From an uncultured Candidatus Saccharibacteria bacterium (GTDB lineage Bacteria > Patescibacteriota > CPR2 > UBA1875 > CAIMLA01), in assembly GCA_964501135.1 (NCBI GenBank), contig CAZCRI010000001.1, positions 192,393 through 256,392 on the forward strand: a DNA stretch of 64,000 nt, given 5' to 3'. Shown here one piece after another: positions 1,828 to 56,977 of this stretch. Below the pieces are notes generated by a model. That model was not told the origin of the DNA. It searched no databases and saw only the letters and a program-made list of their open reading frames with translations. The translations under genes were made by a program, and so were the position numbers. How positions within the stretch are numbered: position 1 is the first letter of the stretch; each line of letters starts with the position of its first letter.

Positions 1828-1836
1828 ACAAAACAG

Positions 1837-1865
1837 TTGAATAAATGGCTCAACGGCACTATAAT
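1837..1865 (+). promoter_or_regulatory. Sigma70-like promoter, TTGAAT-17nt-TATAAT, driving GC-rich cassette 1
   Basis: TTGAAT at 1837-1842, 17-nt spacer, TATAAT at 1860-1865. The RBS AAGGAG lies 6 nt before the ATG at 1920. Confidence 0.55.
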
Positions 1866-1919
1866 GACCGAGCCAAAAGGAAATCTGCAGCCTATGCTGC
1901 CTGACCCGAAGGAGTACCG

Positions 1920-2204
1920 ATGGGAGTCCCGGTAGTAATGCCGGACGGTGAATCTCAGCAGTGGATGATGTCGACAGCTTGCTTCGACCCCGCTACTGGT
2001 CACCTTCACCTCCGCAGGCTCGACACGGTCTATGTGGAAATAGACTACGAGAAGCAGGTTTCGTTTGCTTGGGTTGACGATGTACTCACCCTCGTCTCGC
2101 CTGCTGAAGGTGCGCGCTCACGCTCGTTAGTGGTTGCTGACCAGGTTCTGGTAGATGGCGATGGCCGCTGGGGTATTTACCCACAAAATCGGCGAAGGAG
2201 GTAG
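1920..2204 (+). CDS. Hypothetical small protein (94 aa) in GC-rich cassette 1
   Basis: ORF with AGGAG RBS. GC content (~58%) is clearly above the neighbours. No recognisable domain. Arg-rich C-terminus. Confidence 0.35.
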   Translation: MGVPVVMPDGESQQWMMSTACFDPATGHLHLRRLDTVYVEIDYEKQVSFAWVDDVLTLVSPAEGARSRSLVVADQVLVDGDGRWGIYPQNRRRR

Positions 2205-2206
2205 CG

Positions 2207-2479
2207 GTGGCTATCTTGACGGGACGTTTTCTCACTATCGTCGCGTTGCACGACGTCCGACGTTGTCAGGTGAAGGAAGCTGTGACGAAGAGCCACAAAG
2301 GCTTGGCGGTGACAGAAGACGGCACCGAAGCGGTTCTGGACCATGAAATGAGGGTCGAGGCCATCGAGACTCCTGACGGGTTGTATCTCTTTGAGCCTCT
2401 TGAGGGTCACGAAGTCGCAGTACTGCCCGGACCCCATGTCCGGGTCCTCCAGTGCGGCTACTGGTATCCCGAGCGCTAG
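2207..2479 (+). CDS. Hypothetical small protein (90 aa), GTG start, in GC-rich cassette 1
   Basis: GGAGG RBS 5 nt before the GTG. Immediately follows the previous ORF. No recognisable domain. Confidence 0.35.
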   Translation: MAILTGRFLTIVALHDVRRCQVKEAVTKSHKGLAVTEDGTEAVLDHEMRVEAIETPDGLYLFEPLEGHEVAVLPGPHVRVLQCGYWYPER

Positions 2480-2509
2480 TCCCTACAAGCTCCACAGTGG
2501 AAGGCAATT

Positions 2510-2537
2510 GCCCCCGCGTGGGGCTTTTGTCGTTTTA
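2510..2537 (+). terminator. Rho-independent terminator closing cassette 1
   Basis: GCCCC-cgcgt-GGGGC followed by TTTTGTCGTTTT. Confidence 0.6.
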
Positions 2538-2585
2538 TTGGCTGTCCCATGGGTGTAAAATATAGCTATAAATAGGAGAAAGACC

Positions 2586-4117: not shown

Positions 4118-4672
4118 ATGGCTCTACTGGATGTACTGGACGAAGCGGGAATACCCACCGGTGACACTAAAACCAAGGCTGAAATTCATGAACAGGGGTT
4201 GTGGCATCGCTCCTCTCATGTTTGGGTTTACGATTCTACTGGAAATATTCTTTTGCAACTCCGCGCGAAAAATAAAGATAGCAGCCCAGGTCTTTGGGAT
4301 ATATCTGCAGCTGGCCATGTAGATGCCGGTGAAACCCCTGAATTTGCCGCTGTGAGGGAGGTAGAAGAGGAGATCGGACTTTCTACCACCGAAGATAATC
4401 TGAAAAAGGTCTGGGAAAGACGAGAGTCTACATTTGACCCGGCTAATGGCTGGACAAACAATCAGATTAGCTGCGAATATATTCTTCTTTATGACGGTAA
4501 GCATGAAGAGCTGGTTTATCAGGAGGAAGAAATTGACGAACTTCGCTGGCTTACCATCGAGGAACTTAAAAACGAATTCGCAGACCCTAGGACATTTAGT
4601 TTCTACGTTGATCATGGGGATGGTTATTATGAGAGAATTATTTCCGAGATTCAGAAAGCGCTCTGTAGATGA
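4118..4672 (+). CDS. NUDIX hydrolase
   Basis: Nudix box GHVDAGETPEFAAVREVEEEIGL. Confidence 0.7.
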   Translation: MALLDVLDEAGIPTGDTKTKAEIHEQGLWHRSSHVWVYDSTGNILLQLRAKNKDSSPGLWDISAAGHVDAGETPEFAAVREVEEEIGLSTTEDNLKKVWERRESTFDPANGWTNNQISCEYILLYDGKHEELVYQEEEIDELRWLTIEELKNEFADPRTFSFYVDHGDGYYERIISEIQKALCR

Positions 4673-5466
4673 ACTACTCTGAGGTAATGAAGAGGTTAGA
4701 ATCTCTGGCTAGCCACGACCCCGCCGATCTCGCGGGGATGGCTCGGTTTGGAATAAATGTTGATAAGGCTTGGGTGATTAGCATCCCGAAGTTGAGGAAT
4801 TTGGCAAAGGAAATAAAGCGCTCTGTCATTTCGACCGAAATGGAGAAATCTGCTCCGGGAAAAGCAGGAAGATCTCTCGGCTACGCTCGAGATGACAATG
4901 GTGGTGCGAAAAAACTTCACAACCTCGCGTTACAGGTCTGGGCAAGTGGCGTCCATGAAGCAAGAATTCTAGCTGGATTTATCGACGACTCAAGTGAGGT
5001 TACTGAAAAACAGATGGAAAGCTGGGTTTCGGAGTTTGATTCTTGGGATGTAACCGACATGATCTGTGGCAACCTCTTTGATCGTACGGAATTTGCAGTA
5101 AAGAAAGCCATAGAGTGGTCTGCTCGCGAAGAAGAATTCGTTAAGAGGGCTGGTTTCGTGTTAATGGCTGGTCTTGCCGTGCATGACAAGACAATGTCTG
5201 ACGCACAATTTGTTCAATTTCTAGAGATAATCAAACGTGAGTCAGGGGATAAGCGCAACTTTGTGCGTAAGGCTATAAATTGGGCCTTGCGGGCAATTGG
5301 CAAGAGTCGCAACAAATATTTATATCTACAAGCAAAGGTGATGGCACAGGAAATTTTGGATTCGATTGGTAACAGCAAAGATGAATCTGCACGGGCTGCT
5401 CGTTTTATTGCTGGTGATGCCCTCCGAGAATTAGAAAAAGAATACATTCAAAAGCGATTTTGCTAG
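4669..5466 (+). CDS. DNA alkylation repair enzyme (AlkD/AlkC-like HEAT-repeat glycosylase family)
   Basis: Helical-repeat protein with ...ARFGINVDKAWVISIPKLRNLAKE...WASGVHEARILAGFI...RAGFVLMAGLAV...RKAINWALRAIGK, a pattern typical of PF08713-type DNA alkylation repair proteins. The start overlaps the NUDIX stop (ATGA). Confidence 0.5.
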   Translation: MNYSEVMKRLESLASHDPADLAGMARFGINVDKAWVISIPKLRNLAKEIKRSVISTEMEKSAPGKAGRSLGYARDDNGGAKKLHNLALQVWASGVHEARILAGFIDDSSEVTEKQMESWVSEFDSWDVTDMICGNLFDRTEFAVKKAIEWSAREEEFVKRAGFVLMAGLAVHDKTMSDAQFVQFLEIIKRESGDKRNFVRKAINWALRAIGKSRNKYLYLQAKVMAQEILDSIGNSKDESARAARFIAGDALRELEKEYIQKRFC

Positions 5467-5487
5467 AATCATTTATATAAAAAGCAG

Positions 5488-5531
5488 AAAGGGAGACGCG
5501 CTCCTCACCTTTCTGGTGATGCAAGTCTCCC
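5488..5531 (-). terminator. Compound GC-rich hairpin, downstream of the minus-strand cassette-2 ORF and also at the 3' end of the AlkD-like gene
   Basis: GGGAGAC...GTCTCCC outer stem with TCACC-tttct-GGTGA inner stem. On the minus strand it is followed by a T-rich run. Confidence 0.5.
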
Positions 5532-5945
5532 TTACCAGGATCTGGGCCTGTAGCTGTCACGAGACATCCCTCGTGTAGCTTGGTTTGCGGCAGCGAAAGA
5601 GGTGTTGATACGCCTGGTGTGATTGTGCGTTTCTAGTTCTCTTTCGGCGCGCCACGAGGCGCGTGCTTTGGCAAACCTGTCCTGTTCGACGTAGGACTCT
5701 AGCTCGTTCCGAACCTTGTCGTTCATCATCTGGCGCAGGTTCAGAGTGACCGTGTAGCGGGTACCATTGCGACTGAGCGGCGGATTGAGCCACTTACTCT
5801 TGTCGCTCAAAGAGCGCAAGATAGGATCTGGCAGACCCGCGTTATTCTTCTGTACCAGCCCTTTTGAGCTGTGGAACAGAAGGCAGAGCGCCAGAGCCAA
5901 GCGAAGCTCATGGTTTTCGACGTGTCTTATTATCTCTGGTACCAT
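5532..5945 (-). CDS. Hypothetical protein (137 aa) in GC-rich cassette 2
   Basis: Minus-strand ORF with AGGAG RBS (gagaggagctcgagATG) and its own promoter. GC content is raised. No recognisable domain. Confidence 0.4.
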   Translation of the reverse strand: MVPEIIRHVENHELRLALALCLLFHSSKGLVQKNNAGLPDPILRSLSDKSKWLNPPLSRNGTRYTVTLNLRQMMNDKVRNELESYVEQDRFAKARASWRAERELETHNHTRRINTSFAAANQATRGMSRDSYRPRSW

Positions 5946-5987
5946 CTCGAGCTCCTCTCGAAGTAGTGTGGATTAGGATGTGCGTGG

Positions 5988-6016
5988 ATTTTAGCACAGA
6001 ATTACAGATTTATCAA
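5988..6016 (-). promoter_or_regulatory. Minus-strand sigma70-like promoter, TTGATA-17nt-TAAAAT, for cassette 2
   Basis: Reverse complement of 5986-6016 reads TTGATAaatctgtaattctgtgcTAAAAT. -35 at 6011-6016, -10 at 5988-5993. Confidence 0.5.
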
Positions 6017-6051: not shown

Positions 6052-6080
6052 TTGACGTCAATTCCAACGGGGGCTAAAAT
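6052..6080 (+). promoter_or_regulatory. Sigma70-like promoter, TTGACG-17nt-TAAAAT, upstream of pyrG
   Basis: TTGACG at 6052-6057, TAAAAT at 6075-6080. RBS GAAGGGGG precedes the GTG start at 6143. Confidence 0.5.
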
Positions 6081-6142
6081 AATTGTAGTAAATGAGGTGG
6101 CGGTCCCAATATTTGGGACTTTTTAAGAGATAGAAGGGGGTC

Positions 6143-7750
6143 GTGTTGGGTAAAGATACCAAATACATTTTTGTTACTGGTGGTGTAATCTCGGGTCTCG
6201 GCAAGGGGATATTTGGAGCCTCTATTGGCAACATCCTCAAAAGTCGGGGCTTTTCTGTAAATATGCAAAAATGTGATCCGTATCTAAATGTTGATGCTGG
6301 AACCCTAAATCCTGGGGAGCACGGTGAGGTGTTCGTTACCGACGATGGCGCCGAAACCGATTTAGATTTGGGCCACTATGAACGTTTTATCGATACTCCA
6401 ATGACGAAACTTTCTTCTGTGATGACAGGGAAGATTTATACTCAGGTTCTTGAGGATGAGCGTAAGGGTAAGTACCTTGGCAAGACTGTACAGGTGATTC
6501 CGCATATTACCAATAAGATTCAGGACAACATCATAAATGCCGCTGGCGACTTTGATATTCACATCGTGGAGATCGGTGGTACCGTAGGTGACTATGAGGG
6601 ACTTCATTTTATTGAGGCTATCCGTCAAATGCGTCGCAAGGTTGGCCGGGAGAATGTCCTCTATGCGCACCTTGTTTACTTACCTTTTATTGAGGCTTCG
6701 AAGGAGCTCAAGACCAAGCCAGCACAGAACAGTGTTCGTGATCTTCTGCAGCTTGGAATTCACGCAAACATTGTAGCTTGCCGTGCCGATCATGCTATCG
6801 AGCAGGAACACCTAGCAAAAATTGCGCTCTATGCAGATGTGGACGAGAAGGCAGTAGTTCCGTTACCTACCATCAATAGTGTCTATAAGGTACCACGCAA
6901 TTTAGAGAAGGTCGGACTAGGAGATTATATCTGCGAGCAGCTGAATCTTCCAATCCGTAAACCTCAGGAAAATGGCTTGGTCAAGTACCTATTAGATCTG
7001 GAAAAGTCGGACAAGGAAGTTCGAATTGGTTTAATCGCCAAGTATATGTCAAACGAAGATACCTATAAGAGCGTCAACGAGGCTATCCAGGCAGCAACAG
7101 TAAACAATGGCGCTTGTGCTAAAATCGTTTGGGTCGATGCCGAGAAGATTGAGAAACAGGGCGTCGATATTCTAAAGGATCTCGATGGCATCGTTGTTCC
7201 GGGTGGTTTTGGAAATCGTGGAACCCTCGGTAAAGTTTTGGCAGCACAATACGCACGTGAGAACAATGTGCCTTATCTTGGGCTCTGCCTCGGTATGCAG
7301 ATTGCTACCATTGAATTTGCACGTAACGTTCTCGGCTGGAAAGATGCCGACAGTGAAGAATTCCGTCCAGAGGGCAAGTGTAATGTGATTCACATCATGC
7401 CAGAGCAAAAGGCAATTATGGACAAGGACGACTATGGTGCTACCATGCGACTCGGTGCCTACCCGTGTGTGCTTGATAAGAAATCACGTTCGTTCAAGCT
7501 TTATGGTGAAGAGAAGATTAGCGAGCGACATCGTCATCGCTTTGAGTTTAATAACGATCACAGGGAAGAGTTTACGGCTGCAGGACTGCTGTTTGCTGGA
7601 CTCTCACCGAATCATCACCTGGTGGAGATTGTGGAAATCCCAGAACATAAATTCTATGTTGGGGTGCAATTCCATCCAGAGTTCAAGAGTCGTCCAGGGA
7701 AGCCACATCCACTATTTGATGGTTTTGTAAAAGCGATTTTAGAAAAGTAA
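6143..7750 (+). CDS. pyrG: CTP synthase (GTG start)
   Basis: N-terminal synthetase domain YIFVTGGVISGLGKG. C-terminal glutamine amidotransferase domain GLCLGMQ plus the FHPEF motif. Length 535 aa. Confidence 0.95.
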   Translation: MLGKDTKYIFVTGGVISGLGKGIFGASIGNILKSRGFSVNMQKCDPYLNVDAGTLNPGEHGEVFVTDDGAETDLDLGHYERFIDTPMTKLSSVMTGKIYTQVLEDERKGKYLGKTVQVIPHITNKIQDNIINAAGDFDIHIVEIGGTVGDYEGLHFIEAIRQMRRKVGRENVLYAHLVYLPFIEASKELKTKPAQNSVRDLLQLGIHANIVACRADHAIEQEHLAKIALYADVDEKAVVPLPTINSVYKVPRNLEKVGLGDYICEQLNLPIRKPQENGLVKYLLDLEKSDKEVRIGLIAKYMSNEDTYKSVNEAIQAATVNNGACAKIVWVDAEKIEKQGVDILKDLDGIVVPGGFGNRGTLGKVLAAQYARENNVPYLGLCLGMQIATIEFARNVLGWKDADSEEFRPEGKCNVIHIMPEQKAIMDKDDYGATMRLGAYPCVLDKKSRSFKLYGEEKISERHRHRFEFNNDHREEFTAAGLLFAGLSPNHHLVEIVEIPEHKFYVGVQFHPEFKSRPGKPHPLFDGFVKAILEK

Positions 7751-17363: not shown

Positions 17364-17391
17364 TTGACAAAAATAGAGAAAGGTGTATAAT
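17364..17391 (+). promoter_or_regulatory. Consensus sigma70 promoter, TTGACA-16nt-TATAAT, reading into GC-rich cassette 3
   Basis: TTGACA at 17364-17369, TATAAT at 17386-17391. Confidence 0.55.
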
Positions 17392-17478
17392 AATCGGATA
17401 GTTCACAAAGAACATCGCACCGCGGCCAAGAGTCGCATACAATCCACGTACAATGCCTAGGAGGCTGCTGTGAAACGT

Positions 17479-17616
17479 ACTATCTTGGATGATTACTTCC
17501 AGGAACGCCTGAAGGTGTTTCTTGGAGCGCTCTACTTCATCGGTCTCTTCCTCTATTTCATCGGGGAAGCGCTTGTAGAGGACGCGATGCGTCCTTTCCA
17601 GCTGTAGTCCAGCGGG
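17479..17616 (+). CDS. Possible small hydrophobic peptide (45 aa, GTG start) in GC-rich cassette 3
   Basis: Perfect AGGAGG 6 nt before the GTG. VKRTILDDYFQERLKVFLGALYFIGLFLYFIGEALVEDAMRPFQL carries one hydrophobic helix. Speculative. Confidence 0.25.
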
Positions 17617-18088
17617 GACAAAAGGCTCTTAGGGCCCCGTAGACACCGTAGCCGGACGGATTCCGGATGTTCCCTTCATGACGAAGGGTCGAGCAAGGAG
17701 GTATCTCCATGAAGATCGCTCGCACTGCAGTCGCCGTTCGCGGCACCCCGGTCGTCAGCTCGTCCATCCTTATGAGTTCTGAATTCGGCATCCGCGGCGC
17801 GCGCGCCGGCACCGGGCCGCACAACTAGGGCCCGGTCGTCTCGCTTCGGGTAGCAACTCCTCAGGCGGGGAGATCCGAAGCGTCAGCACTAGCCTCGCGT
17901 TTCTGACCAGGAATCCTCTCGCGAGGTTGCTCTAACAGCTTGTGCTAAAATGTACGTGGAAATGGGGTCGGGACGATCACACATGGCCGCGCCAAAGGCG
18001 CCGCGTAGTGTTGGCCGTACCGGCCCTTCTCCTTTTAAGGATACGATGTATACTTGTTTCTTTGCCTTCGGCAATCTAGAATATCTAT

Positions 18089-25253: not shown

Positions 25254-28200
25254 TTGGCCAAAAAGCCACGATTCCTGAAAGCTAGAAGCTATTGCAAGAA
25301 GGCAGTAAGTGCATGTTCTGCTATTTTTGGCTTGGCTATCGTTCGCGCTCTTACCTTCTTTATTGATAGGGCCAGAATCTGGCGGTTTGAGCTGATGTAT
25401 AAACTTCATCTCAAAGTTCGTTCGGTCCATGACAACTTGGTAATTAAGAATGTAATCTATAGAAAAGTCACTGAAAATAGGTATGCCATACCGGTGCGAA
25501 ACGCCTCGGTCTCGGCTTTCCTAGTTTCTCTGCTTCTCTTTACCTCTTTGCAGTACTTGTTGCCACTTCTAAATCCATTTAAGGCGACAGGGGTACAAGC
25601 TGGCAGTACAACTTATAATTGGCCGACAAACTCACCTTTTTCAAGCGCAGTTACCACCCCTAATATGGATTTTTCTACAACACCCAATAGCGCACAGCTT
25701 ACCAGAGGTTTGGATCACTATCTCGAAACCGGTACTGGTACAGATGGTTCTCTGACTGTCTCTAACCCCATGACAGTATGGAGAAATGGCGTTCAAGTCA
25801 CTAACGTTACAAGCTACAACATTAATACAGACAAATCTACTCCTAGTAGGGTTTGTAGTGAAGGCGGAGATGCTGTCAATTATTCTGTGACTGCGATTAC
25901 TCCTACAAGTGCAACACTATTAAATACTCCTGCGGCAAACTGTTTGGCAATGGGTGACGAAATACTACTTATTAATCTTAAGGGTACGCCCACTAATTAT
26001 GCCAATGTAGGTAATTATGAAACTTTTACTATTTCAAGTATATCGAGTAATGTAATAAACTTCTCAAGCGTAAAGACAAAATACTATGGAAATGATGGTG
26101 GTGATGCGAATATAGGCTCCACCATAAATGTCAATCAAATTGTAATGCTGCAAAGAGTACCAAATTATAGTTCTGTAAATGTTACTGGTACGTTAACTGG
26201 TAGCTCCTGGGACATAACTTATAAGAAAAACGGTGTTTTATTCTTTAGAAATACGGGTACAACTACAGTGAGTGGTGTTATCACTATGGATGGCAAAGGG
26301 TATTCTGGAGGTACGGTTGTAAATGGAGGCGAGGGATATAATGGAACTGGCGGTAATGGGGGCATTTATAATAGTGTTGGAAATATTGGTCAAGGCGGCG
26401 GGGGAGGAGGAGGTGGAAATACAAAAGCTGGTGGTCAAGGCACTACTGGATCAGGAGGTGGTGGGGGTGGTATAGGTCAAAATAGTTCCACCTGGTTTGG
26501 CGGCGGCGGCGGCGGTGGTGGCTATGGCACAGTGGGAACAGGTGGTTATTATAGTAATAGAATAGGTTCGCCTGGAAGTGGGAATCAGGGTGGTGCAGGA
26601 GTGTCAAGTAATAGTGGAATTGGCGCCAGTGGCGGTGGCGGAGGAATTTATGGTTCCTCAAGTACATTGAATAGTAAAATCTATTTTGGTTCGGGTGGCG
26701 GTGGAGGAGGAACTAGTGGTACCAGTGGGGGTCCCGGATACCCTGGTGGTTCGGGTGGTGGTATCATTCATATCGGTTCAAACAATATTACTGTTTCTGC
26801 TTCTGGGAATATTTCTGCAAAGGGAAGTAAGGGGGGTGATAATGGCACGGCCTATTGGTATGGTTCAGGAGGCGGGGGCGCTGGTGGGTCAGTTTATTTT
26901 TCTTCAAATTCTGTTAATAATTCTGGTACCGTGTCTGCTTCTGGTGGTACTGGGGGCGTAGGAAGTGCTGCTGCTAGTGCTGGTGGCACCGGTGGTTCAG
27001 GAAGAATTGGGATACAACATATTTCCACATCAACTTTCGGGACAATTTCACCCACCCCTACAAATATACAAATTGGTTCATTCACGGGTGTATACCAATA
27101 TGCGTCAAGCGGCAATATTGGAACGGCAGCAACAGATGCTGGTGGGTTGGTTCTTGATGCTGGTATTGGTAGGGCAATAAAGCCCTTTTCTCTCGATTGG
27201 TCTGCCGATACTACTATTAGCGGACAAAAAATATATTTTAAAGTTAGAACTGCGGCCCAATCTTCGGATCTTCACTCGGCGTCGTGCTATGGACCTGCGG
27301 GTAGTGATCCTACCTGCTCAGACTGGTCTACAGTTGGCACATATTTCTCTCAGGTAAACAGCGATGGTTCTATAACTACAAGCCCGTCTGAATTACCGGG
27401 ATCAATTTTAAGTACAATATTGCCGAATAGATATGTTGAAATATTAGTGTATATGGAGGTCGCAGAACGCTCTAGTAGTCCAGTTTTAACTAATCTTACA
27501 CTTTCCTATGATTCGTTAGATTACCCGTCTTATGACAAGTTATTACTATATAAATCTGATGCTTCTACGGTGCTTAAAAATTCATCTGGCTCAAATATTT
27601 CACTAGGTGCCGCAAATTCTGTTGGTGGGTATAACAATGAGTCGACAGTGGTACTTAAGGCTACAGATCTTACGTGTGGTACTGCTGCAAATGATAATTA
27701 TTGTTCAGGTTCAGTTTCTGGCTCTACATCACGTAAGCCCCAGGTTGAAGTGAGGGAAGTAGGTGCTGCCTTTGATGACACAACACTAGTAGAAGGGGCA
27801 AATTACTTTGCATCCGAAAGCACTTCCACTACCTCTACAGGCGAGCTTCAGTCTGGTCAAGTCTCTATAACAGGACTACAAACAGGCAAGCAATATCATG
27901 TAAGAGTTAGAATAGTAGATGCACAAAGCCGTGTATCTGCTTGGACGGCCTATGGAAATAATGCCGAGAGCGTAGCGGACTTTAGTATAGAACAGGATTC
28001 ACCCACACTGTCGACATTCACGATCAATTCAGGAGCATCCTACTCTAGCTCCTCCAATGTAACGCTAAACATTTCGGCTACCGATTCTGGTGGCTCAGGC
28101 CTTTCTCAAATGCAGTTCTCCAATAACGGAACAGACTGGGGTAAAACCGCTGATATTGACGGCAATATCACTGATACTGGCTGGGCAACTTATGCTACCA

Positions 28201-31200
28201 GTTACTCCTGGAATGTGGCAAAGGGTGTGGTAGATGGAGGTAGTGACACGGCTAGGACTGTGTATGCGAGAGTGAGAGATAATGCTGGGAATGTGAGCGG
28301 AAGGTTACACAACACAAAAGCTGATTTTGAGGGTAGTGGGTATCAAAAAGGCTTAGGAACAATAATAGCCGCAAACGGCACTCTCAGTTTACAAACCTTT
28401 AGCGGCTCGGAATCGGTTTCGTTAACAGGAACAGATGGGACAACTCGGACATATACGGGTGCTTCGGAGGTTAATGTTGGTTGGTCGGGTAGTTGTCCAA
28501 ATATTTCCATTAACATTGGCGGTGCCAGTGCTTACTCTGGGGGCGATGGTTCGGGCGCAACTGGGTGGATGAGTGGATCAACAACAACGGTTAGTTGCTA
28601 TGACGATACAGGTGAAAATAGTGCTTCAATAACCTTTAATATCTCGTTTAGGTCAACTCAGCTTCCTGTTTTTGATACCTATTCTTCACCAACAATAGCC
28701 TTGGGTACAGGGTCAACAGCAACCCAAATCGGTTGGGTTAACACTTCCGTTCCCGGTGATTCCTCGGTGAAATTTAAAGTCGCTACAAAAGACTCGGATA
28801 CCGGTTGGCAGACCTCCGACTTTATCGGCCCCGACGATACCGAAAACACCTTTTACGATATAAGTAGCGGCCAGAATCTTTCAACTCAGCATTTGAATAA
28901 AAGATATTTACGCTACAAAGCATTCTTATATTCGACATCAGATCGACTCCAAACACCTATCTTAGATTCAGTCAGTATTTACCAAGCTTTAGTCGCCACC
29001 ACTATTCTTGATACGCAGACACCTACAGGCACGGTGGCTATACGAGATTCTTCGTCTGGTTACGCCTTGAGCAAGAATGTGACCCTGAATCTTGAACCGA
29101 GTGACGCCGCACCATCATCGGGGCTAAAGGATTTTGCTCTTTCTAATGACGGAATCACTTGGTCCGGTTGGACAAATTGGAGTGAAACTTATCGGGCTGC
29201 AGGTGTGGGATATTCATGGACTTTAGCCGCTGGTGCTGATGGAACTCGAAATGTTTATGTGAAATATCGTGATAATGCTGGAAATGTAGGAGGTGTTAAT
29301 ATACCTGGGGATAATTGGACGCCTGGACAAGCTGAAACAGGGTACGCTACGGAGTTAGTGGGAAAATATGTTTACAATTTTGATGACCAATCATATCCGT
29401 ATCTTAAATGGAAATCGGATAGAGCTGATTGTAGCGGCAATCAATGTAGCAAGACAGCTTACCCTGCTCCTGATAGTTTTAATTCTCAAGCCAATGTACT
29501 TGTAAGTCCTCAGTTTAATCCAGGGGTTACATTTGGGACGGAATACCCAGCGCAGGAGGCTTGTAGTCTGATTGGTGGCCGTTTACCGAAGGTTAATGAA
29601 CTCAGGGCAATTTATGCAGGCAAGGTTGCTGGTCACTATAGTAACCTTGACGATTATTCATATTGGACTGCGACAGAGGTCCCTTGGAGCAGTGGCAATA
29701 GAACTTCGGCCTACTTGGTTCAATTTTATAATAACGGGAATCTTAGTTTCGATGTTAAAGATAGTACTATAGCAAGAACTAGGTGCGTTGCAGACGTTAC
29801 TCCTACAATAGGGGTTTCTGTCACACTTGACGTTTCCGGACCTGCCACCACTCTAAATATCAACCCGGCCACCCCAAATGGTGACAACGCTTGGTATAAA
29901 ATTGGTAAACCTACGGTTGCCTTTTCGTCCTCGGACAGTGCCTCGAAAACCGATAAAACATATTATGAATTTGTAACAACTGGCGCAGCTGCGCCAACGG
30001 TAGGTGCTTACACCAACACCCTAACCAACTCCGGGCAGGTTGACCCATATCAACCGTCTATACCTGTTGGTAATATACCAGAGGGGGATAACACACTGTA
30101 CTGGTATGCCGTAGACAAGGCGGGTAATGTAGAGAGCGTTCATAATCAGCAAATAAAGGTTGATATCCAAACACCTGCCACCACATATGTAATAGATCCT
30201 GAATTACCAAATGGCGACAACAACTGGTATACACTTACGGCGCCTACAATTACACTGAGCAGTAACGATCCCGGCACACCTAATTATTCTGGAGTGGCGA
30301 CACTTTACTACGCCTGGGAAACAGATACCAACCAAGCAGGTTGTACAGCACCGAAGTACTGGGAATCAAATGTAGGACGTTGCTTTAACGTCTACGCGGG
30401 AGCTTTTTCTCCGAATGATGGGAGCCACACACTGTATTATTTTTCGAAGGATAATGCTGGAAATGCCGATGCCGTTACTACAGAACAAATTTCCTACATT
30501 TCTCAGTTACCAAGCGTACCTTCGAATTTTCGGGCACCTGTGGGCGATCCAGAGACGGACGGCTCACACATTAAACTTTATTGGAATGCTTCAAGCTCGG
30601 TATCTGGCATTGTGGCTTATCAAATATTGAGGAAAAGGGAGATTGATAGCTGGGGCCAGCGCGATGCTACAATTGACTTACCGCTTCCGTTGAGTAATAC
30701 GATATACTTAGACTCGAACGAAACAACCACCCCAAATGGCTTGAATATTTTGGAAACTGGGCAACGGTATAACTATAAGATAAGGGCGCGTGATAATGCG
30801 GGGAACTGGGGCTCTTTCTCTACAGATAAACTGGGGTATACTGCAGACTTTATATCTCCGACACCAGTTACTGGAGTTTTGGCGGAAGCCTGTGACGGGA
30901 CACTTTATGACTCTCAAAATAGCCCAAATGGAAAATGTAGCGATATTGGCAACGAAGGGTTTGAGGTCAAGCTTACTTGGAATAGCTCAAACGACACTGG
31001 AGTTGGTATGTCCAAGTATATCATTTATCGTTCTACAACCAATTCGGCAGATGAAGCTGAGTGGCCAGTAGTGGGGGTGTTGGAATACGCTTCTGGGCAG
31101 GAGACCATTTGGTTTGATAATGACACCAATAACGCTGCTACTTTTACTACTGACAAACCTTCTGCTACCCCGATACTGAACGATTCAACCGATTATTATT

Positions 31201-34200
31201 ATCGTATCAGAGCTTTTGATAATACTGAATCAGGAAACCCAACAGCATTATTTCCGTCTGATCCTGGGCTCTTTCTTTCTAACTTTAGCTCTACTACAAC
31301 CCCTGATGTTACTGCACCGACCGTTCCAAGTAATGTTGTTGCTTCACCGCTTGGTCTTGACTCATCGGGCAGCCATCAGAAGGTTCATCTTACTTGGAGT
31401 GAGTCGAAGGATTACAGGCGACGCTCTAGTGATGAGGTAGCAGGGATTGTAAACTATAACGTTTACCAAGCTACCAATCCCGCAGGACCATATACCTTGG
31501 CGAGAACAACATCTGAGATTGTCATTGACCTAGATGGGTTAGATGAATTTACTAACTACTATTATGCAGTGGAATCATATGACAGTGTTCCGAATACCTC
31601 AGCTCGTTCTGACTCCGCTACGGCCCGGACAGCTTCCAACTCGGTACCAACAACTCCGACTGATGTAACAGTGACAACTAAGACGGGTGACCCTGCGACG
31701 GATTCACAGATCGGCCACAAAAACACCATTAGTTTTAATGGGTCTTATGCTAAAAATTGCCTGAACTCAGTTGGTTGTTTGACAAAGTATGAAGTCTATC
31801 GCTCCACGAATAATTATTCTGATTATCAGACATGGCTTACGAATGGAACAAAAATTGCTGAAGTAGCACCAGCTGATCTTCGGGATGACCGCACGGCGAC
31901 AGTACAGAACAATCAGGGTAATGTGGTTAGGAGCGAGCCTTATCAGGTGGTAGATACCGGCCAGATTTATCCGGCAACTTCTGCGAATGGGCTTACCAAC
32001 GCCACTACTTATTACTACAGGGTTTGGGCGCTGGATAATACACCTGATCCAGTAACTGGCGGAGTTTGCCCCGTGACCCTAGTAGGGGTTCAGTGTAATT
32101 ACCATTCACCAATGACGACAGTAGAAGTTGGTACACCACACGCTGGTTGGGACACGACTGCAGATGATGAAGCTCCTGCCTTACCGACCGAACTCAAGGT
32201 GAAGGACATTCATGATGACGGATACGCCTTTAAGCGCAATATTATTACCTGGGCGCGTATCGAAGACCCTCTCAGGAATGGCACGAATGACTTTTATGAA
32301 TACCGAATTTACCGATCAGATGATGGAGTTACTTGGGAACAAATATGTACCGATGGCACCAATCAATACCTGCAAGCAGAATGCGGCCTGCCGAATGAAA
32401 GTCATTACAATCCTCTTTTTAATGCGGATCAAGAACTAGGGCTCGCCACGAACTATTATATGGATTTGATACCAAATTCGTTGGCAAACCAATATTATTA
32501 TTATCACGTAACAGCAGTTGATAATGCTGGATCTAGTTTTCGCTATTCAAACGGCCAGGTGATAAATAAAGTTGGTAATGTGACTTACTCGAACGAGTCT
32601 GAACCTGCAAGAGACGGAAATGGTAACATCGTCTCTGAGTCGCTAAATCCGGCAATCGCAAAGCCTACGATTACAACAACGGGTGCCTTTGCACCAAGGA
32701 TGGTGAATGTAGGAGTCTCCTCGGCGAGTCTTCAGTGGTATGCCGATCAGCCGACAGACTCAGTGGTAGAGTTCAAGGCGGTATCAGATACAGAATGGAT
32801 TACGATAGGTGAGCGAGAGAAAAAGAACCCAGATACACCTCACGTTGTAAATCTTTTCGGTCTTAGACCAGCTACGGAATATGAATATAAACTCATTTCT
32901 AGAAATAGTTTAGGCAACGAGGACGTTCTCGGTGACCGGCAAGAAGAAAAGGTGACGGTCCCGAACTTTACAACCAATTCATTCACAGTCAACTATCAGG
33001 CCGATAAGATAGAGAAGTCCACAGTATCTATTAAGCTTTTCTGGACCACGAATATGCCTGCAAATACAAACATTGTCGAGTATAAGCTTAGCAACGGTGA
33101 CCAGACTGGTTCGACAGCGGAGACGCCAGTGAATCTAGATGCAATACCTAGTAACGGACGAAATTGTGCAGCGACGCCGTCGTTGTGTAATCACACCGTT
33201 ACTCTATCTCCACTCCGCGGAGCTAGTGAGTATACTTTCAAGATAAGGGCGATGTCACTTGATGGGTTCAATACCGAAACCTCTTTTCTTTCGTTTATCA
33301 CTGATAACGCCGATACTAGGCAATTTACGATGGTGCCCTCATCTTCGAACGTAGCTGATCGCAACATCACTGCTACTTCGGCACAGATTGTATGGCAAAC
33401 TGCAGTTCCGACCACGGCAATTGTTCACTTTGGGACTTCTAAATCTGGTCCATATGCTAGCACCGCTACAGACAGCGTCTTTAGCTCCTCACACGTGGTT
33501 GTTCTCGAGGGGTTAACCCCGGGCGAGACATATTACTATTGGGTGGAAGCTAAGGACATCAATAACTTGGTTTACTCTTCTCCGGAATACTCCTTTAAGG
33601 CTGTGCTTAAGCCAAAAATCTCTAACATGCAGCTCAAGAATGTAACACCATACGCCGTAACGATTGCCTGGGACACCAATATTGAGACAGAGACAGTTAT
33701 AAACTGGGGCAAGACAGCTGTTTATGGCGAGAAACGAGGGGTTTCTGGTCTAAGTAAAGTACATCAAGTGGTGATAGACAATCTGGAAGACAATCAGGAA
33801 TATCATTATCAGATCCTGGCTAAGGATGAGACGGGCAATGAAGTTGCAGATACTGACAAGATTGTTCGTACCCCCCTCGACACCGAGGGACCAAAGATTA
33901 CCAATGCCAAGACTGATATTCTCCCTATGGGTGAGAATGACACAACCGCATCAGTGATCATCTCTTGGAATACCAATAAACCAGCTACCACGCTCGTCGA
34001 GTATGATGAAGGTATCATCGGCGGCGGCTATGGTAACAGGTCTGTGGAGGACACTTCGCTAAATACTTCACACACCGTTATCATAAAGAACCTAAAGCCA
34101 GCATCCTCATTTCACTATCGTATGGTCTCTGCTGACAAGCGTAACAACATCACGCAGTCGCAGGACTACACCTTCGTCACACCGACGAAAGAAAAGTCCA

Positions 34201-34304
34201 TCCTACAGCTCATCTTAAAGTCACTCGAGGAAACCTTCGCTTGGACAAAGAACCTCAATCAATTCTTTGGAAATATTGGCAAAAGAATCACTGGTAAAAA
34301 GTAA
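25254..34304 (+). CDS. Giant cell-surface protein 1 (3016 aa, TTG start). It has an N-terminal membrane anchor, a Gly-rich region, Ig-like/Fn3 repeats, a DUF1566/C-type-lectin-like domain and a C-terminal Fn3 (purple-acid-phosphatase-N-like) array
   Basis: GGGAGGG RBS. TM VSAFLVSLLLFTSLQYLLPLL. Poly-Gly tracts (GGGGGGGG). A recurrent DNAGN motif at Ig-like domain ends. A lectin-like ...CSLIGGRLPKVNEL...YWTATE...RCVAD segment near nt 29530-29790. The C-terminal ~730 aa are paralogous to the next gene. Confidence 0.8.
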   Translation: MAKKPRFLKARSYCKKAVSACSAIFGLAIVRALTFFIDRARIWRFELMYKLHLKVRSVHDNLVIKNVIYRKVTENRYAIPVRNASVSAFLVSLLLFTSLQYLLPLLNPFKATGVQAGSTTYNWPTNSPFSSAVTTPNMDFSTTPNSAQLTRGLDHYLETGTGTDGSLTVSNPMTVWRNGVQVTNVTSYNINTDKSTPSRVCSEGGDAVNYSVTAITPTSATLLNTPAANCLAMGDEILLINLKGTPTNYANVGNYETFTISSISSNVINFSSVKTKYYGNDGGDANIGSTINVNQIVMLQRVPNYSSVNVTGTLTGSSWDITYKKNGVLFFRNTGTTTVSGVITMDGKGYSGGTVVNGGEGYNGTGGNGGIYNSVGNIGQGGGGGGGGNTKAGGQGTTGSGGGGGGIGQNSSTWFGGGGGGGGYGTVGTGGYYSNRIGSPGSGNQGGAGVSSNSGIGASGGGGGIYGSSSTLNSKIYFGSGGGGGGTSGTSGGPGYPGGSGGGIIHIGSNNITVSASGNISAKGSKGGDNGTAYWYGSGGGGAGGSVYFSSNSVNNSGTVSASGGTGGVGSAAASAGGTGGSGRIGIQHISTSTFGTISPTPTNIQIGSFTGVYQYASSGNIGTAATDAGGLVLDAGIGRAIKPFSLDWSADTTISGQKIYFKVRTAAQSSDLHSASCYGPAGSDPTCSDWSTVGTYFSQVNSDGSITTSPSELPGSILSTILPNRYVEILVYMEVAERSSSPVLTNLTLSYDSLDYPSYDKLLLYKSDASTVLKNSSGSNISLGAANSVGGYNNESTVVLKATDLTCGTAANDNYCSGSVSGSTSRKPQVEVREVGAAFDDTTLVEGANYFASESTSTTSTGELQSGQVSITGLQTGKQYHVRVRIVDAQSRVSAWTAYGNNAESVADFSIEQDSPTLSTFTINSGASYSSSSNVTLNISATDSGGSGLSQMQFSNNGTDWGKTADIDGNITDTGWATYATSYSWNVAKGVVDGGSDTARTVYARVRDNAGNVSGRLHNTKADFEGSGYQKGLGTIIAANGTLSLQTFSGSESVSLTGTDGTTRTYTGASEVNVGWSGSCPNISINIGGASAYSGGDGSGATGWMSGSTTTVSCYDDTGENSASITFNISFRSTQLPVFDTYSSPTIALGTGSTATQIGWVNTSVPGDSSVKFKVATKDSDTGWQTSDFIGPDDTENTFYDISSGQNLSTQHLNKRYLRYKAFLYSTSDRLQTPILDSVSIYQALVATTILDTQTPTGTVAIRDSSSGYALSKNVTLNLEPSDAAPSSGLKDFALSNDGITWSGWTNWSETYRAAGVGYSWTLAAGADGTRNVYVKYRDNAGNVGGVNIPGDNWTPGQAETGYATELVGKYVYNFDDQSYPYLKWKSDRADCSGNQCSKTAYPAPDSFNSQANVLVSPQFNPGVTFGTEYPAQEACSLIGGRLPKVNELRAIYAGKVAGHYSNLDDYSYWTATEVPWSSGNRTSAYLVQFYNNGNLSFDVKDSTIARTRCVADVTPTIGVSVTLDVSGPATTLNINPATPNGDNAWYKIGKPTVAFSSSDSASKTDKTYYEFVTTGAAAPTVGAYTNTLTNSGQVDPYQPSIPVGNIPEGDNTLYWYAVDKAGNVESVHNQQIKVDIQTPATTYVIDPELPNGDNNWYTLTAPTITLSSNDPGTPNYSGVATLYYAWETDTNQAGCTAPKYWESNVGRCFNVYAGAFSPNDGSHTLYYFSKDNAGNADAVTTEQISYISQLPSVPSNFRAPVGDPETDGSHIKLYWNASSSVSGIVAYQILRKREIDSWGQRDATIDLPLPLSNTIYLDSNETTTPNGLNILETGQRYNYKIRARDNAGNWGSFSTDKLGYTADFISPTPVTGVLAEACDGTLYDSQNSPNGKCSDIGNEGFEVKLTWNSSNDTGVGMSKYIIYRSTTNSADEAEWPVVGVLEYASGQETIWFDNDTNNAATFTTDKPSATPILNDSTDYYYRIRAFDNTESGNPTALFPSDPGLFLSNFSSTTTPDVTAPTVPSNVVASPLGLDSSGSHQKVHLTWSESKDYRRRSSDEVAGIVNYNVYQATNPAGPYTLARTTSEIVIDLDGLDEFTNYYYAVESYDSVPNTSARSDSATARTASNSVPTTPTDVTVTTKTGDPATDSQIGHKNTISFNGSYAKNCLNSVGCLTKYEVYRSTNNYSDYQTWLTNGTKIAEVAPADLRDDRTATVQNNQGNVVRSEPYQVVDTGQIYPATSANGLTNATTYYYRVWALDNTPDPVTGGVCPVTLVGVQCNYHSPMTTVEVGTPHAGWDTTADDEAPALPTELKVKDIHDDGYAFKRNIITWARIEDPLRNGTNDFYEYRIYRSDDGVTWEQICTDGTNQYLQAECGLPNESHYNPLFNADQELGLATNYYMDLIPNSLANQYYYYHVTAVDNAGSSFRYSNGQVINKVGNVTYSNESEPARDGNGNIVSESLNPAIAKPTITTTGAFAPRMVNVGVSSASLQWYADQPTDSVVEFKAVSDTEWITIGEREKKNPDTPHVVNLFGLRPATEYEYKLISRNSLGNEDVLGDRQEEKVTVPNFTTNSFTVNYQADKIEKSTVSIKLFWTTNMPANTNIVEYKLSNGDQTGSTAETPVNLDAIPSNGRNCAATPSLCNHTVTLSPLRGASEYTFKIRAMSLDGFNTETSFLSFITDNADTRQFTMVPSSSNVADRNITATSAQIVWQTAVPTTAIVHFGTSKSGPYASTATDSVFSSSHVVVLEGLTPGETYYYWVEAKDINNLVYSSPEYSFKAVLKPKISNMQLKNVTPYAVTIAWDTNIETETVINWGKTAVYGEKRGVSGLSKVHQVVIDNLEDNQEYHYQILAKDETGNEVADTDKIVRTPLDTEGPKITNAKTDILPMGENDTTASVIISWNTNKPATTLVEYDEGIIGGGYGNRSVEDTSLNTSHTVIIKNLKPASSFHYRMVSADKRNNITQSQDYTFVTPTKEKSILQLILKSLEETFAWTKNLNQFFGNIGKRITGKK

Positions 34305-34398: not shown

Positions 34399-37300
34399 GT
34401 GATGAAACCTAAAAAAGCTCAGCTAAATTCAGTGTGGAAACGAGCTACAAAGCTACTATCGAAAAGTAGTAATTTTAGGTTACGCAAAAGTTTTTTTACT
34501 CAAATTCCGTTGCGTTCACTATCCTTCGTCTGGTCACTCTTCAAACATATTATTTCTTTCCTAGCGAAGAACGTTATCTTGGTCCTTATAAATTTTATTG
34601 ATTATCTAGTAAAACTGCTCCAGATATTACGCTATGAGCTGACCTATAAATTCCACCTCAAGGTTCGCTCGGTACATGACACTTTGGTAATACGTGTGCC
34701 GGTTTACAAGAAGGTTACAGAACATCAGCTAGCTGTCCCAGTACGCAATGCAACTGTATCGGCTTTCTTCTGCTCATTAGCAATCTTTTTATCTCTCCAG
34801 TATGTACTGCCTCTTTTTAATCCGTTTGCCCCACAGGGAGCTCACGCGGGATCAAATAGTGCGACCTGGACCACAGATTCTGACTTTAATAACAATACAA
34901 TTACAACAAACACACCTACAACCAAGAATACAACAAATTTTGCAGGTACAGTTCTTGCCACAACCGGTAGTACTTCAGTTGTGGGCACGGGTACATCTTT
35001 TGCAGATTATCTGGATCCTTTTAATACTCCTAAGGCTATTAATATAGACGATGTTTCTTATGGTGTGGCTAGTGTGACCGACAATACCCATCTGACACTT
35101 ACTGCAAACTATCAAGGGACTACTGGCTCGGGGAAAACATTCACCTTTGATAATGTTGTAGTGAATGATGATGCCATAAGTCTACGTAAATATGGTCTCC
35201 CTGTAACTAAAACTTCAACTTTTACAGTTCCTAGCGGTGTCACGAAAATATATATTGACATGAAGGGTGGCGGAGGCGGTGGTGGTTCTACTGTTTATTC
35301 TGGAGGGAATTGCGGACAAGCCGGAGGCGCCGGGGGATACTCAGCGCTTAAGATTGATAACGGACTAGAATACTGGGCATTCGGCGGCGGCGGAGGTGGA
35401 GGAGGTTGCCCTAACTTTGTTGGGGCAACAGGCTCTCCTGGAACCTATAATCACCGAAACGTTCCCACCTTAATACCCGTTGATGGAGGGGCAAATAATG
35501 GAGGTATAGGGGGTTACTATGCAAGTACTAGCCGTGGAGGTAATGGTGGTGCGGGGGGCAGGATCACGGGCACATTGGCAGTCACTGGGGGTCAAGTTGT
35601 CACAATAACAAATGGTGCTGCAGGGGTTGGTGCTACTGGCCCAAGCGGATGGCCAAAGGTAAACGGAGCGAATGGATCCGCAGGCTCTGTAGAGGTACTG
35701 TATTACATCCCTGCATTTGCAGGAAATGGTAATATAACTGGCTTTAAAATTGATGCAGGGGCAGGACTTAAATATAAGTGGAGTTCCTTATCATGGGTTA
35801 CTGATGCCTTACCAAGTAATACATCGGTGAGGTTTAAATACAGAACATCAGACGACGGTTCCAGCTGGTCTGATTCTACCTGGTCACAAACAGGAACGGC
35901 ACAAATAACTGGTAGTTCAGGAGGAGCTTCTTTGACCAGTTTGAGTGCTTCCAGATACTTGGAACTTCAGCTGCTGCTGTATTCCGTAGACGGAGTCTAT
36001 TCCCCTAAGCTAAATGAGTTTATAGTACAGTACGATACCTTGGAAGCACCCTTAAATGAAAACCTATCGTTAACTGACATAAGTAATAACTCATTAAGAA
36101 CCACAACGGGTATGATTACAGACGTTCCGATCGAGACCACTTCTATACCGGCGGGGCATTCCAGATATGGAACTCCAAACACTTGGACAAATCAAGCTAC
36201 AGTAAGGCTTAAGGCAAACAACCTTACCTGCGGGAGTGGTGTGACGGCATGTACTGTTACTTCTACAAACCTAAGACCAGAAGTGGAGATAAAGCCTATT
36301 GTTAATGGGGTTCCAACGGCATTTACGGGCAGTGGAGTGACGGCAGATGAAGGCAAGACCTATGTCGATATTTCTGGTTTAGCTACAAACTCAGCCTACC
36401 ATATCCAAGTAAGAGCCGTGGATGGTCAGGCCAGAGCATCTGCCTGGGTGTCGTATGGAAATAACGGAGAGTCGGAACCAGATGTTACGGTAGAACAAAC
36501 GTCTCCCACCCTTCAGCTTAATGGTTTTGCGGATCAAGCTGGCAGTGATATTTTGGAAAAAGGAGGTGTGCTATACACCAGGAGTAATCAGGTAAAGATG
36601 AAGATTGGAACCTCTGACAATGGGGGTATACGTTCGAACCTTGCAAAAGTAATGATAACTAACAACCTCGACGACACAGGGTGGCAGGATGTTACGAATC
36701 AAATTACAAACTATCAGACACAGTATCTTGGACAATCATCGTTTACTGGGCTAGTACCCTGGACTCTTGAGGGCACGGACGGAGTAAAGACCGTTACTGT
36801 CAAAACTGTAGACAATGCTGGCAACGTCAGTGGACAGAGCATTGTGACTTCAACGGAGCTATCTACTACCGATAGTACTTTTGTGGTTTCTCCTGCAGGT
36901 AATGCGGGCGGCGCTGTAGTTGTAGATAATAAACTTCAGTTATCATCGACAACTAGTGGCGGAGTGGGTAGTTCGACTACCTCTGTATACCCAACAAATG
37001 ATGAAACTACATACTGGGATGAATGGTGCGGAGGCTGGTCATTGGATGAAAACCCAATGGGCACCAATTCTGGCTACGATAATGACTGTGGGAGTTGGGG
37101 GCAAGATGCGCACATTACCTTCAATAACGGTTTAGTTTCTGGTCTAACAAATGCAAGTATAAGGATTACCAGTAATGGTGATGCACTTACCTGGGTCTGG
37201 CATGATACGACAGGTACTTCTAATAGTGTTAATCTGACTACTAATACACCAAATTCACTAGATATCACGGCAATGGTCCAGGCAGATATTGCGAATGGTG

Positions 37301-56267: not shown

Positions 56268-56316
56268 TGTCCAGTGCCGCGCATATCATGCGCGGCACTG
56301 GGTCTTGGACAGCAGC
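56268..56316 (-). terminator. Long GC-rich hairpin between the EamA gene and cassette 4
   Basis: CTGTCCAGTGCCGCGCAT-atc-ATGCGCGGCACTGG..GGACAG. Confidence 0.5.
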
Positions 56317-56717
56317 TACTTGATGGCAGCCTCGTAGAGATTGCCGATACCTACGGCTTCCATGATGGAACGGAGAGCGAGCATCTGCGTCGCGGAGGTC
56401 ATCTCCTCTTTGCGCCAAGATGCCGGGAACTCCGAGTAGAGCCGGGAAGCATTGATCCCGTCTGCGATAGAGCCTACGGCACAGGCGGCGATAGCACAGG
56501 TGTCGTAACGCCCGAGGAGTGCAATCACCGGACGAGTGTTCGCGCTGGCGATTGCATCCCCGATTACGAGGCCAAGCATGAAGCCGTCTTCGTCTTTGCT
56601 GTAGCTCTTCTCGTGGATGTGCAGTTTCTTGTAGGTGTCCAGCTTCTGCTTGTAGTACTCGCTGATGCTTGCGTAAAGCTCATGGATCTCGGCTTGCAGC
56701 CTTACAAGTCTCTGGTT
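56316..56717 (-). CDS. Hypothetical protein (134 aa) in GC-rich cassette 4
   Basis: Start taken at MNQRLV with a GAGAGGGG RBS. Contains LGLVIGDAIA...GRYDTCAIAACAVGSIADGI, only faintly reminiscent of ADP-ribosylglycohydrolase motifs. Too short to assign. Confidence 0.35.
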   Translation of the reverse strand, partial: NQRLVRLQAEIHELYASISEYYKQKLDTYKKLHIHEKSYSKDEDGFMLGLVIGDAIASANTRPVIALLGRYDTCAIAACAVGSIADGINASRLYSEFPASWRKEEMTSATQMLALRSIMEAVGIGNLYEAAIK

Positions 56718-56977
56718 CATTGCAACCCCTCTCGTGAAAGCCGGTCGGCTTGTCTCCACTGTCCAAAGCCCTTTCGATTTACGACGTAAATCAAAAAGGC
56801 TTTCCAGCGGAAAGCCTTTGTAATAGTTGTGAAAATTCAGCAAATACTAACTAGACTCTCCGAGAAGAAAGCGGCGGCGTGGGCGACGAGTTGTTGACGT
56901 AGTATTTTGCATTTGATTTAGTCTATCAAAGTTTGGCGGAGAGGTCAATATTAAGTTAGAAACACTGGATAATACTG

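Follow-up and report, generated by a model that had tools for sequence, protein, structure and literature searches.

A conserved small orphan gene between an alkylation-repair gene and pyrG in Saccharibacteria encodes a basic protein with a predicted winged-helix topology

Saccharibacteria and other members of the candidate phyla radiation have tiny genomes, in which most genes are unannotated and few regulators can be recognised. A gene that lies divergently beside another transcription unit has the classic layout of a local regulator, and the described systems that come closest to the gene reported here are small proteins built around a winged helix-turn-helix (wHTH). The MarR family, with NadR (5aiq), Rv2887 (5hsm), SarZ (3hsr) and OhrR (2pex), comprises proteins of about 130-140 amino acids (aa); IclR regulators (2g7u) carry an N-terminal wHTH in a protein of about 250 aa that also has a ligand-binding domain; and Sso10a (1r7j, 1xsx) and PadR subfamily-2 proteins are small and basic, with one wHTH and one long helix, which pairs with that of a second subunit as a coiled coil. 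Winged-helix domains serve in protein and RNA binding as well. Here we describe ORF137, the gene of a 137-aa protein on the minus strand of a 64,000-nt stretch of DNA from an uncultured Candidatus Saccharibacteria bacterium. This whole stretch is referred to as the window, and all coordinates are those of the window unless a locus is named. The ORF137 unit lies at 5479-6016, between an AlkD-type DNA-alkylation-repair gene and the CTP synthase gene pyrG. It is a genuine, monocistronic, protein-coding gene under purifying selection, and it defines a small protein family that had previously been unmatched in Pfam, NCBIfam, PHROGs and PADLOC. We give about half of our confidence to the reading that its product is a vertically inherited, winged-helix, nucleic-acid-binding protein that acts as a local transcription factor. 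Its conservation, apparently strong expression, lineage specificity, predicted winged-helix-like fold and position beside the pyrG promoter make ORF137 a concrete candidate regulator that can be tested in vitro.

A search of 5.8 billion proteins returned ORF137 itself and only one relative (P0002), of equal length and 72% identity. This ortholog lies in a related Saccharibacteria metagenome-assembled genome (MAG), GCA_041738615.1 (locus L001), between an alkylation-repair gene and pyrG as in the window. The two coding sequences differ at 105 nucleotides, distributed over codon positions 1, 2 and 3 as 36, 14 and 55, and are free of indels; their Nei-Gojobori dN/dS is 0.18, with a bootstrap 95% interval of 0.09-0.32. 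A preliminary description of the unit had named a dN/dS near 1 and a lack of conservation as the findings that would speak against it, and neither was obtained. The dN of 0.187 is similar to the values for the neighbouring alkylation-repair (0.192) and NUDIX (0.166) genes. When six orthologs were compared, the reading frame of ORF137 was the only one open in all of them, each of the other frames carrying stops in at least five. A contig from ERR3839025 is identical to the window, and the arrangement recurs in independent NCBI, JGI and Logan assemblies; thus the locus is not an assembly artefact.

A family profile was then used to read all 1.84 billion cluster representatives, with a cut-off of E <= 1e-3, and retrieved 10 proteins, namely the query's own protein, eight relatives (P0003-P0009 and P0011) and P0010, a repetitive protein of 1106 aa that was judged a false positive. 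Counting P0002, ORF137 has nine relatives, of 121-158 aa, and a scan of metagenome contigs yielded one more locus, L090, which encodes the P0003 protein. The context of the family gene was readable in six lineages (the window, L001, L005, L085, L087/L090 and L088), and in each the gene stands tail-to-tail with the alkylation-repair gene (PF08713) and head-to-head either with pyrG itself or with one or two LPG_synthase_TM genes, behind which pyrG lies in the same orientation. The PF08713 gene is the only neighbour that is immediately adjacent in all six, and a terminator hairpin is common to both 3' ends. In the window itself, the gene for TypA/BipA (86-1798) and several small genes of the hydrolase, cupin, cytidylyltransferase and NUDIX kinds precede the PF08713 gene (4669-5466, plus strand); pyrG (6143-7750, plus strand) and a gene for an MFS transporter follow on the far side of ORF137. 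Between 86 and 10598 ORF137 is the sole credible gene that is not on the plus strand, so the claim that it is the only minus-strand unit in a long plus-strand run stands for the first 10.6 kb. The family proteins are 27-43% identical where pyrG products are 82-84% and repair proteins 59-63% identical, and the family is therefore fast-evolving.

The comparison of presence and absence that had been proposed for the unit gave a fixed site in these six lineages and absence from two close relatives, L004 and L029. In L029 other genes occupy the slot, and in L004 a 332-bp gap holds a different small plus-strand ORF (L004 3497-3828), whose translation, read by eye, looks hydrophobic and possibly membrane-associated; the L004 case suggests that small genes turn over at this intergenic position. 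The family hidden Markov model found no match in the other roughly 70 pyrG loci fetched, and the viral contigs, phage records and plasmid records searched held no relatives of ORF137. The closest relatives of pyrG in a one-genome-per-species collection are Candidatus Saccharibacteria/Patescibacteria MAGs with 75-82% identity, all others being at most 63% identical, and a 16S rRNA gene also lies in the window. A window GC content of 46% and the strong synteny agree with G1 Saccharibacteria as reported (PMC7427843). As judged from these searches, the ORF137 family appears restricted to a few Saccharibacteria (TM7) lineages within one subclade, and the simplest history is that of an old, lineage-specific gene, vertically inherited in a highly syntenic block and occasionally lost. 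An extra small ORF was seen between pyrG and the family gene in L088 (4596-4900), where the 70-aa plus-strand gene that was called may instead be a short Cys-rich ORF on the opposite strand (MMKECRICGNSDKW...).

The elements of the ORF137 unit, all on the minus strand, are those of a self-contained gene, with a single ORF between promoter and terminator. The coding sequence runs over 5532..5945, from an ATG start to a TAA stop at 5532-5534. Upstream, a promoter scan placed a sigma-70-type site, TTGATA-17-TAAAAT (6016..5988), with near-consensus hexamers (10 of 12 consensus positions) at a spacing within the usual 16-18 nt; its -35 hexamer TTGATA occupies 6011..6016 and its extended -10, TGC-TAAAAT with the TG upstream of the -10, occupies 5988..5996. 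The G+C-rich discriminator and leader start, AATCCACGCACATCC, lie at 5976..5990 (family consensus AATCCTCGCACGTACC), and direct reading of the sequence gives the Shine-Dalgarno (SD) site GAGAGGAGC at 5951..5959, the GGAG core of which ends 6 nt before the ATG. At the other end a compound hairpin (5489..5533), with an outer stem (AA)GGGAGAC/GTCTCCC(TT) and an inner stem CACC/GGTG, abuts the stop codon. It was not called by a simple terminator scan and was revealed by folding, with an energy of -28 kcal/mol and a z of -3.6 against dinucleotide shuffles. The hairpin is followed at 5479..5490 by UUUCUGCUUUUU, the U-rich tract TTTCTGCTTTTT of the transcribed strand, which together with the G+C-rich hairpin makes up an intrinsic terminator. 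On the plus strand the tail of the hairpin is UUACCAGG, and the terminator is therefore essentially one-directional. The preliminary description had presented the unit with just these parts, a promoter of its own, an SD site, a 137-aa ORF, a compound 3' hairpin and a raised GC content, and all of them are present, the end of the unit lying near 5479, about 9 nt beyond its left coordinate of 5488.

Taken by itself the promoter match is within chance, three such sites being found against 2.2 expected in 1.6 kb, but the promoter and terminator calls gain weight because they are conserved across lineages. In an alignment of the window with L001, the -35 and TGnTAAAAT of the promoter are kept, and so are the SD site and the outer stem of the terminator. 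None of the six lineages departs from TTGA, from the 17-nt spacing, which is free of gaps, or from the T, A, A, A and T of TAnAAT; the G+C-rich block downstream of the -10 (consensus CCTCGCACGTACC) is almost invariant, and the SD position reads GAGAGGAG or AAGGAGG in every case. The N-terminus M-V/I-P is conserved as well, from which we place the true start in the L087/L090 lineage 9 nt upstream of the called start. At the 3' end the outer stem GGGAG...CTCCC and the subsequent TTTCT are kept, as is a U-tract of CTCCCTTTCT or CTCCCTCTTTTC in all six; the sequence of the inner stem varies between lineages, and each 3' region folds as a hairpin nonetheless. The non-coding control blocks, the discriminator and leader start among them, are thus more conserved than the protein that they flank.

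The G+C-rich leader block may serve as an operator. A second operator candidate is an inverted repeat, GTGC-N10-GCAC, across the -10, which is found in three of the six lineages (the window, L005 and L087) and with one mismatch (GTGT) in L001; as it is missing from L085 and L088 it is a weak candidate only. A regulon marked by the leader motif was sought and set aside, AATCCWCGCACRTMC occurring once in the window and matches with three mismatches being at chance level, and the sharing of AATCCACG with the leader of a unit at 17.4 kb was not significant (2 matches against 1.8 expected). A stringent or rRNA-like promoter was likewise rejected for ORF137, since its discriminator differs from that of the 16S promoter upstream of 60830. 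No convincing complementarity between the 5' leader and the 3' hairpin was seen by eye. In the window the promoters of ORF137 and pyrG are back-to-back, with their -35 boxes 35 bp apart, and in L085, L087 and L090 only about 25 nt separate the -35 from the start codon of the LPG-synthase-like gene on the divergent side. The pyrG leader (6052-6142, plus strand) has features of its own: a promoter TTGACG-17-TAAAAT (6052-6080) is followed by a hairpin GTCCCAATATTTGGGAC (6104-6119) and TTTTT (6120-6124), just before the pyrG SD and GTG start. This leader, in which no GGGC start motif was seen, is almost invariant among the window, L001 and L005, and it looks like a transcription attenuator, of which an example is known for pyrG in Bacillus.

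The protein was said to have no recognisable domain, and this holds for its sequence, whereas its predicted structure has a winged-helix topology. No family model of Pfam, NCBIfam, PHROGs or PADLOC matches ORF137 or any of the 10 family members. A Pfam scan of the 10 at E <= 0.1 left the MarR (PF01047/PF12802) and PadR (PF03551) profiles unmatched, and at the weakest level gave two matches, each for a single member and to unrelated families, with E of 0.11 and 0.77. A profile search of PDB sequences gave chance matches only, EDS1 being an example. AlphaFold2 produced one good model of five from a two-sequence alignment, and from the 10-sequence alignment five models of five that agree, with a pLDDT of 79.7-84.5 (84.5 in the best) and above 90 for residues 11-110. 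The model comprises a helix at 12-23, a short strand at 25/30-31, helices at 33-36 and 40-47 and a beta hairpin at 57-60/63-66, so that residues 12-66, approximately, have in this prediction the canonical winged-helix topology a1-b1-a2-a3-b2-b3. Beyond the wing come short helices at 68-72 and 76-86, a long helix of 35 residues at 89-123, and a tail of pLDDT below 50, disordered in the model, which is basic/aromatic and moderately Arg-rich (four R in the last 13 residues).

Conservation within the family can be mapped on this model. C21, in helix a1, is one of seven invariant residues, and the invariant or near-invariant positions further include K33 at the start of a2, P39, L46 and R63 of the wing. 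F91, R95, W98 and E105, spaced i, i+4, i+7 and i+14, are conserved on one face of the long helix, and a motif N-x-S-F-S-x-x-N-x-A is conserved at residues 114-123, where the pLDDT falls. Before the wing several members show 'L..L...GL[IV]', a pattern characteristic of wHTH recognition helices. The family is uniformly basic, its 10 members having a pI of 8.8-10.4 (10.4 for ORF137) and a net charge of +3 to +15.

When the model was compared with the PDB by Foldseek none of the matches was significant, the best E being 0.28 and the TM score at most 0.38, though about 45 of the top 50 contain wHTH domains; a comparison with viral structures gave nothing significant. MarR-type proteins (NadR, Rv2887, SarZ, OhrR, RovA and MepR) were the top matches, over 108-131 columns, and the other wHTH matches were to IclR, PadR, Sso10a, PrfA/CRP/FNR/NtcA, LysR, BrxR, forkhead proteins and the winged-helix domain of CED-4/STAND proteins. 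The likeness to the MarR family lies in the size of the protein, in the divergent position of its gene beside another transcription unit and, in the model, in a winged helix within the first half, with a long helix at the C-terminus that could mediate dimerisation. In contrast to MarR proteins, ORF137 lacks the two N-terminal helices and has a very short helix a2; its helices are arranged differently, the superpositions having E of at least 0.28, a TM of about 0.34 and an rmsd of 9-10 A, and there is no Pfam MarR match. The best local superposition, on the N-terminal wHTH of IclR (67 columns, rmsd 3.6 A, probability 0.57), lends support to a winged-helix core but is again not significant, and ORF137 is without the ligand-binding domain of IclR. 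The general build is shared with Sso10a, an archaeal chromatin protein, and with PadR subfamily-2 proteins, but the Foldseek matches to these are weak, with E about 2-3 and a full-length rmsd above 13 A; ORF137 is unrelated to them in sequence, and its dimer is only putative. A type II toxin-antitoxin module was also considered and discarded, as there is a single ORF with no PADLOC or Pfam match to such systems.

The sequence signals predict that transcription of ORF137 starts at a strong promoter of the sigma-70 type, which has an extended -10, that translation starts from a strong SD, and that the transcript ends at an intrinsic terminator shared with the convergent AlkD-type gene. As a local transcription factor the protein would bind nucleic acid, most likely DNA, through its N-terminal winged helix, probably as a dimer joined through the long helix, and would act on the shared divergent promoter region, so regulating itself and possibly the unit that contains pyrG. 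We infer the binding to DNA, the dimerisation, the regulatory role and the targets from the model and the layout of the locus. Weighing against this reading are the weakness of the structural matches, a putative recognition helix that is poorly conserved where the leader block is well conserved, and the relatives that lack the family gene and keep the same neighbours.

The same basic protein could instead serve not in transcriptional control but as a small accessory factor that binds nucleic acid or protein, such as a nucleoid-associated factor, a repair factor working with the AlkD-type glycosylase or an RNA-binding protein, which would dock on a partner through the N-x-S-F-S-x-x-N-x-A motif and the basic/aromatic tail. 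The PF08713 gene is after all the sole neighbour that is always adjacent in the six lineages, tail-to-tail and with a common hairpin, and the motif at 114-123 lies where the pLDDT declines, as docking motifs typically do; yet the convergent orientation gives no co-transcription, L004 and L029 retain the glycosylase gene without the family gene, and we know of no AlkD partner of this kind. We therefore regard an accessory role as possible but rather unlikely. Improbable in our view is a one-cysteine sensor of redox state or electrophiles of the OhrR/SarZ kind, in which oxidation or alkylation of Cys21 would switch DNA binding. It would account for the invariance of C21 in the first helix, where OhrR and SarZ carry their sensing cysteine, and would suit both the presence of these two proteins among the top Foldseek matches and the alkylation-repair gene next door. 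Those matches are not significant, however, and no MarR profile is matched; Cys21 sits within a hydrophobic LALALCLL helix and may be a core residue, and the neighbour is convergent, with no obvious co-regulation. It could lastly be supposed that there is no protein gene here at all, and that ORF137 is a chance ORF in a GC-rich structured non-coding RNA or an artefact of assembly. The RNA of the coding sequence does fold better than its shuffles, with a negative z in each of the six orthologs (-4.2 in the window), and conservation is higher in the untranslated ends than in the protein, but a dN/dS of 0.18, the excess of third-position differences, a frame open in six lineages, the conserved SD and MVP N-terminus, a confident AlphaFold2 model, the lack of an Rfam match and the recurrence of the arrangement in the independent assemblies make this hardly credible.

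The unit had been put forward as the second of a set of GC-rich mini-cassettes, and a recently acquired foreign or mobile cassette, integron-like or derived from a phage or a host, has also to be weighed against vertical inheritance of a local regulator. ORF137 has a GC of 0.541 against 0.457 for the window, an excess of 8 points, and a G+C content at third codon positions (GC3) of 0.64 against 0.452 +/- 0.060 for 43 ORFs of at least 100 aa, about 3 standard deviations above the mean, a composition of the kind expected after recent acquisition. With integron cassettes it shares the short single-ORF unit, the imperfect 3' hairpin and the atypical composition; it is moreover self-contained, lies in the opposite orientation to its surroundings and is patchy among close relatives, being absent from L004 and L029. 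Unlike integron cassettes, ORF137 has a promoter of its own, no array and no nearby intI, and its location is fixed among relatives. There are no meaningful repeats flanking it, no integrase within 10 kb and no tRNA near it, and no GTTRRRY (attC) core was seen in the 3' hairpin region. Homologs were found neither in the viral contigs, phage records and plasmid records searched nor outside the small family in 1.84 billion proteins. The gene occupies the same site in the same orientation in six lineages, and as these have diverged to 27-43% protein identity any acquisition must be old; since the GC excess persists in every diverged lineage, a foreign origin not yet ameliorated is not the explanation. 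A recent cassette is thus highly improbable, and the notion of an inserted or repeated module is not supported, given the single syntenic site, the want of repeats and integrase and the unrelated proteins. The cassette pattern is real as a compositional and architectural class, in that the units have a common layout and codon-usage shift, but its members are neither related nor mobile elements: when the family profile was compared by hhalign with the cassette-1 ORFs and with a further orphan, ORF175, the probabilities were below 1%. The Arg-rich tail said to be held in common with ORF A of cassette 1 is probably coincidental, as the end of ORF A that encodes its RRRR tail overlaps with the SD of ORF B (AAGGAGG). 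Thus ORF137 is an ordinary, previously unclassified orphan gene of a new small family, with a fold resembling a known kind, and not a new kind of genetic element.

What the composition of ORF137 and other small orphans in the window presents is a minor but real puzzle. Compared with the local genome, the family gene is 6-11 points higher in GC and GC3 in every lineage. In ORF137 the codons shift from T/A-ending to C/G-ending ones (T3 from 0.33 to 0.17, C3 from 0.22 to 0.36), and the same shift is found in unrelated small orphan ORFs at 1920-2479 (plus strand) and 56316-56843 (minus strand). Excess folding of the coding RNA is suggestive, the z values of the six orthologs against dinucleotide shuffles being -4.2, -2.0, -4.3, -1.2, -1.6 and -1.4, where seven control segments from neighbouring genes gave +1.0 to -2.5. 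An overlapping antisense gene was discarded as a cause of the GC3 or of a low dS, no other frame being open across the six orthologs. Small-gene units that are self-contained and evolve fast may form an undescribed class in Saccharibacteria, with ORF137 as one example, in which C/G-ending codon usage, an unusually structured mRNA and conserved untranslated ends are actively maintained, possibly by GC-biased gene conversion at recombining accessory loci or by selection on RNA, as in dual-function RNA/protein genes. We consider this decidedly unlikely; if true, the class would point to a special pool of accessory genes, which might serve in host interaction. The window would contribute to it at least three or four units with unrelated products, at 1830-2540 (plus strand), 5479-6016 (minus strand, ORF137), about 17365-18050 (plus strand) and 56316-56900 (minus strand).

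Cassette 1 (1830-2540, plus strand) consists of a promoter TTGAAT-17-TATAAT, two abutting ORFs and a terminator. Its ORFs, of 94 and 90 aa with a GC3 of 0.59 and 0.67, have no family match; they are conserved in the closest relative only, at 52-58% identity, and the second has a dN/dS of 0.19. The stretch at 17365-18050 (plus strand) is the most GC-rich island of the window (0.62), with its own TTGACA-17-TATAAT promoter and GC-rich hairpins. Two candidate ORFs of about 45 and 39 aa, each after an SD-like GGAGG, were picked out by eye, an antisense ORF of 88 aa has equal GC in all codon positions, and there is no Rfam, tRNA or Pfam match; the island could be a structured RNA or another small-gene unit. 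ORF175 (56316-56843) is a lone minus-strand orphan between the genes of an EamA transporter and an fn3-domain protein, which ends in a GC-rich hairpin. It is 175 aa long with a GC3 of 0.66, though probably shorter and started from an internal ATG; its coding RNA folds with a z of -3.5 against shuffles, no Pfam family matches it, and it bears no relation to ORF137. The window further contains two giant adjacent plus-strand ORFs, at 25254-34304 and 34399-42621, of 3016 and 2740 aa, which presumably encode surface proteins.
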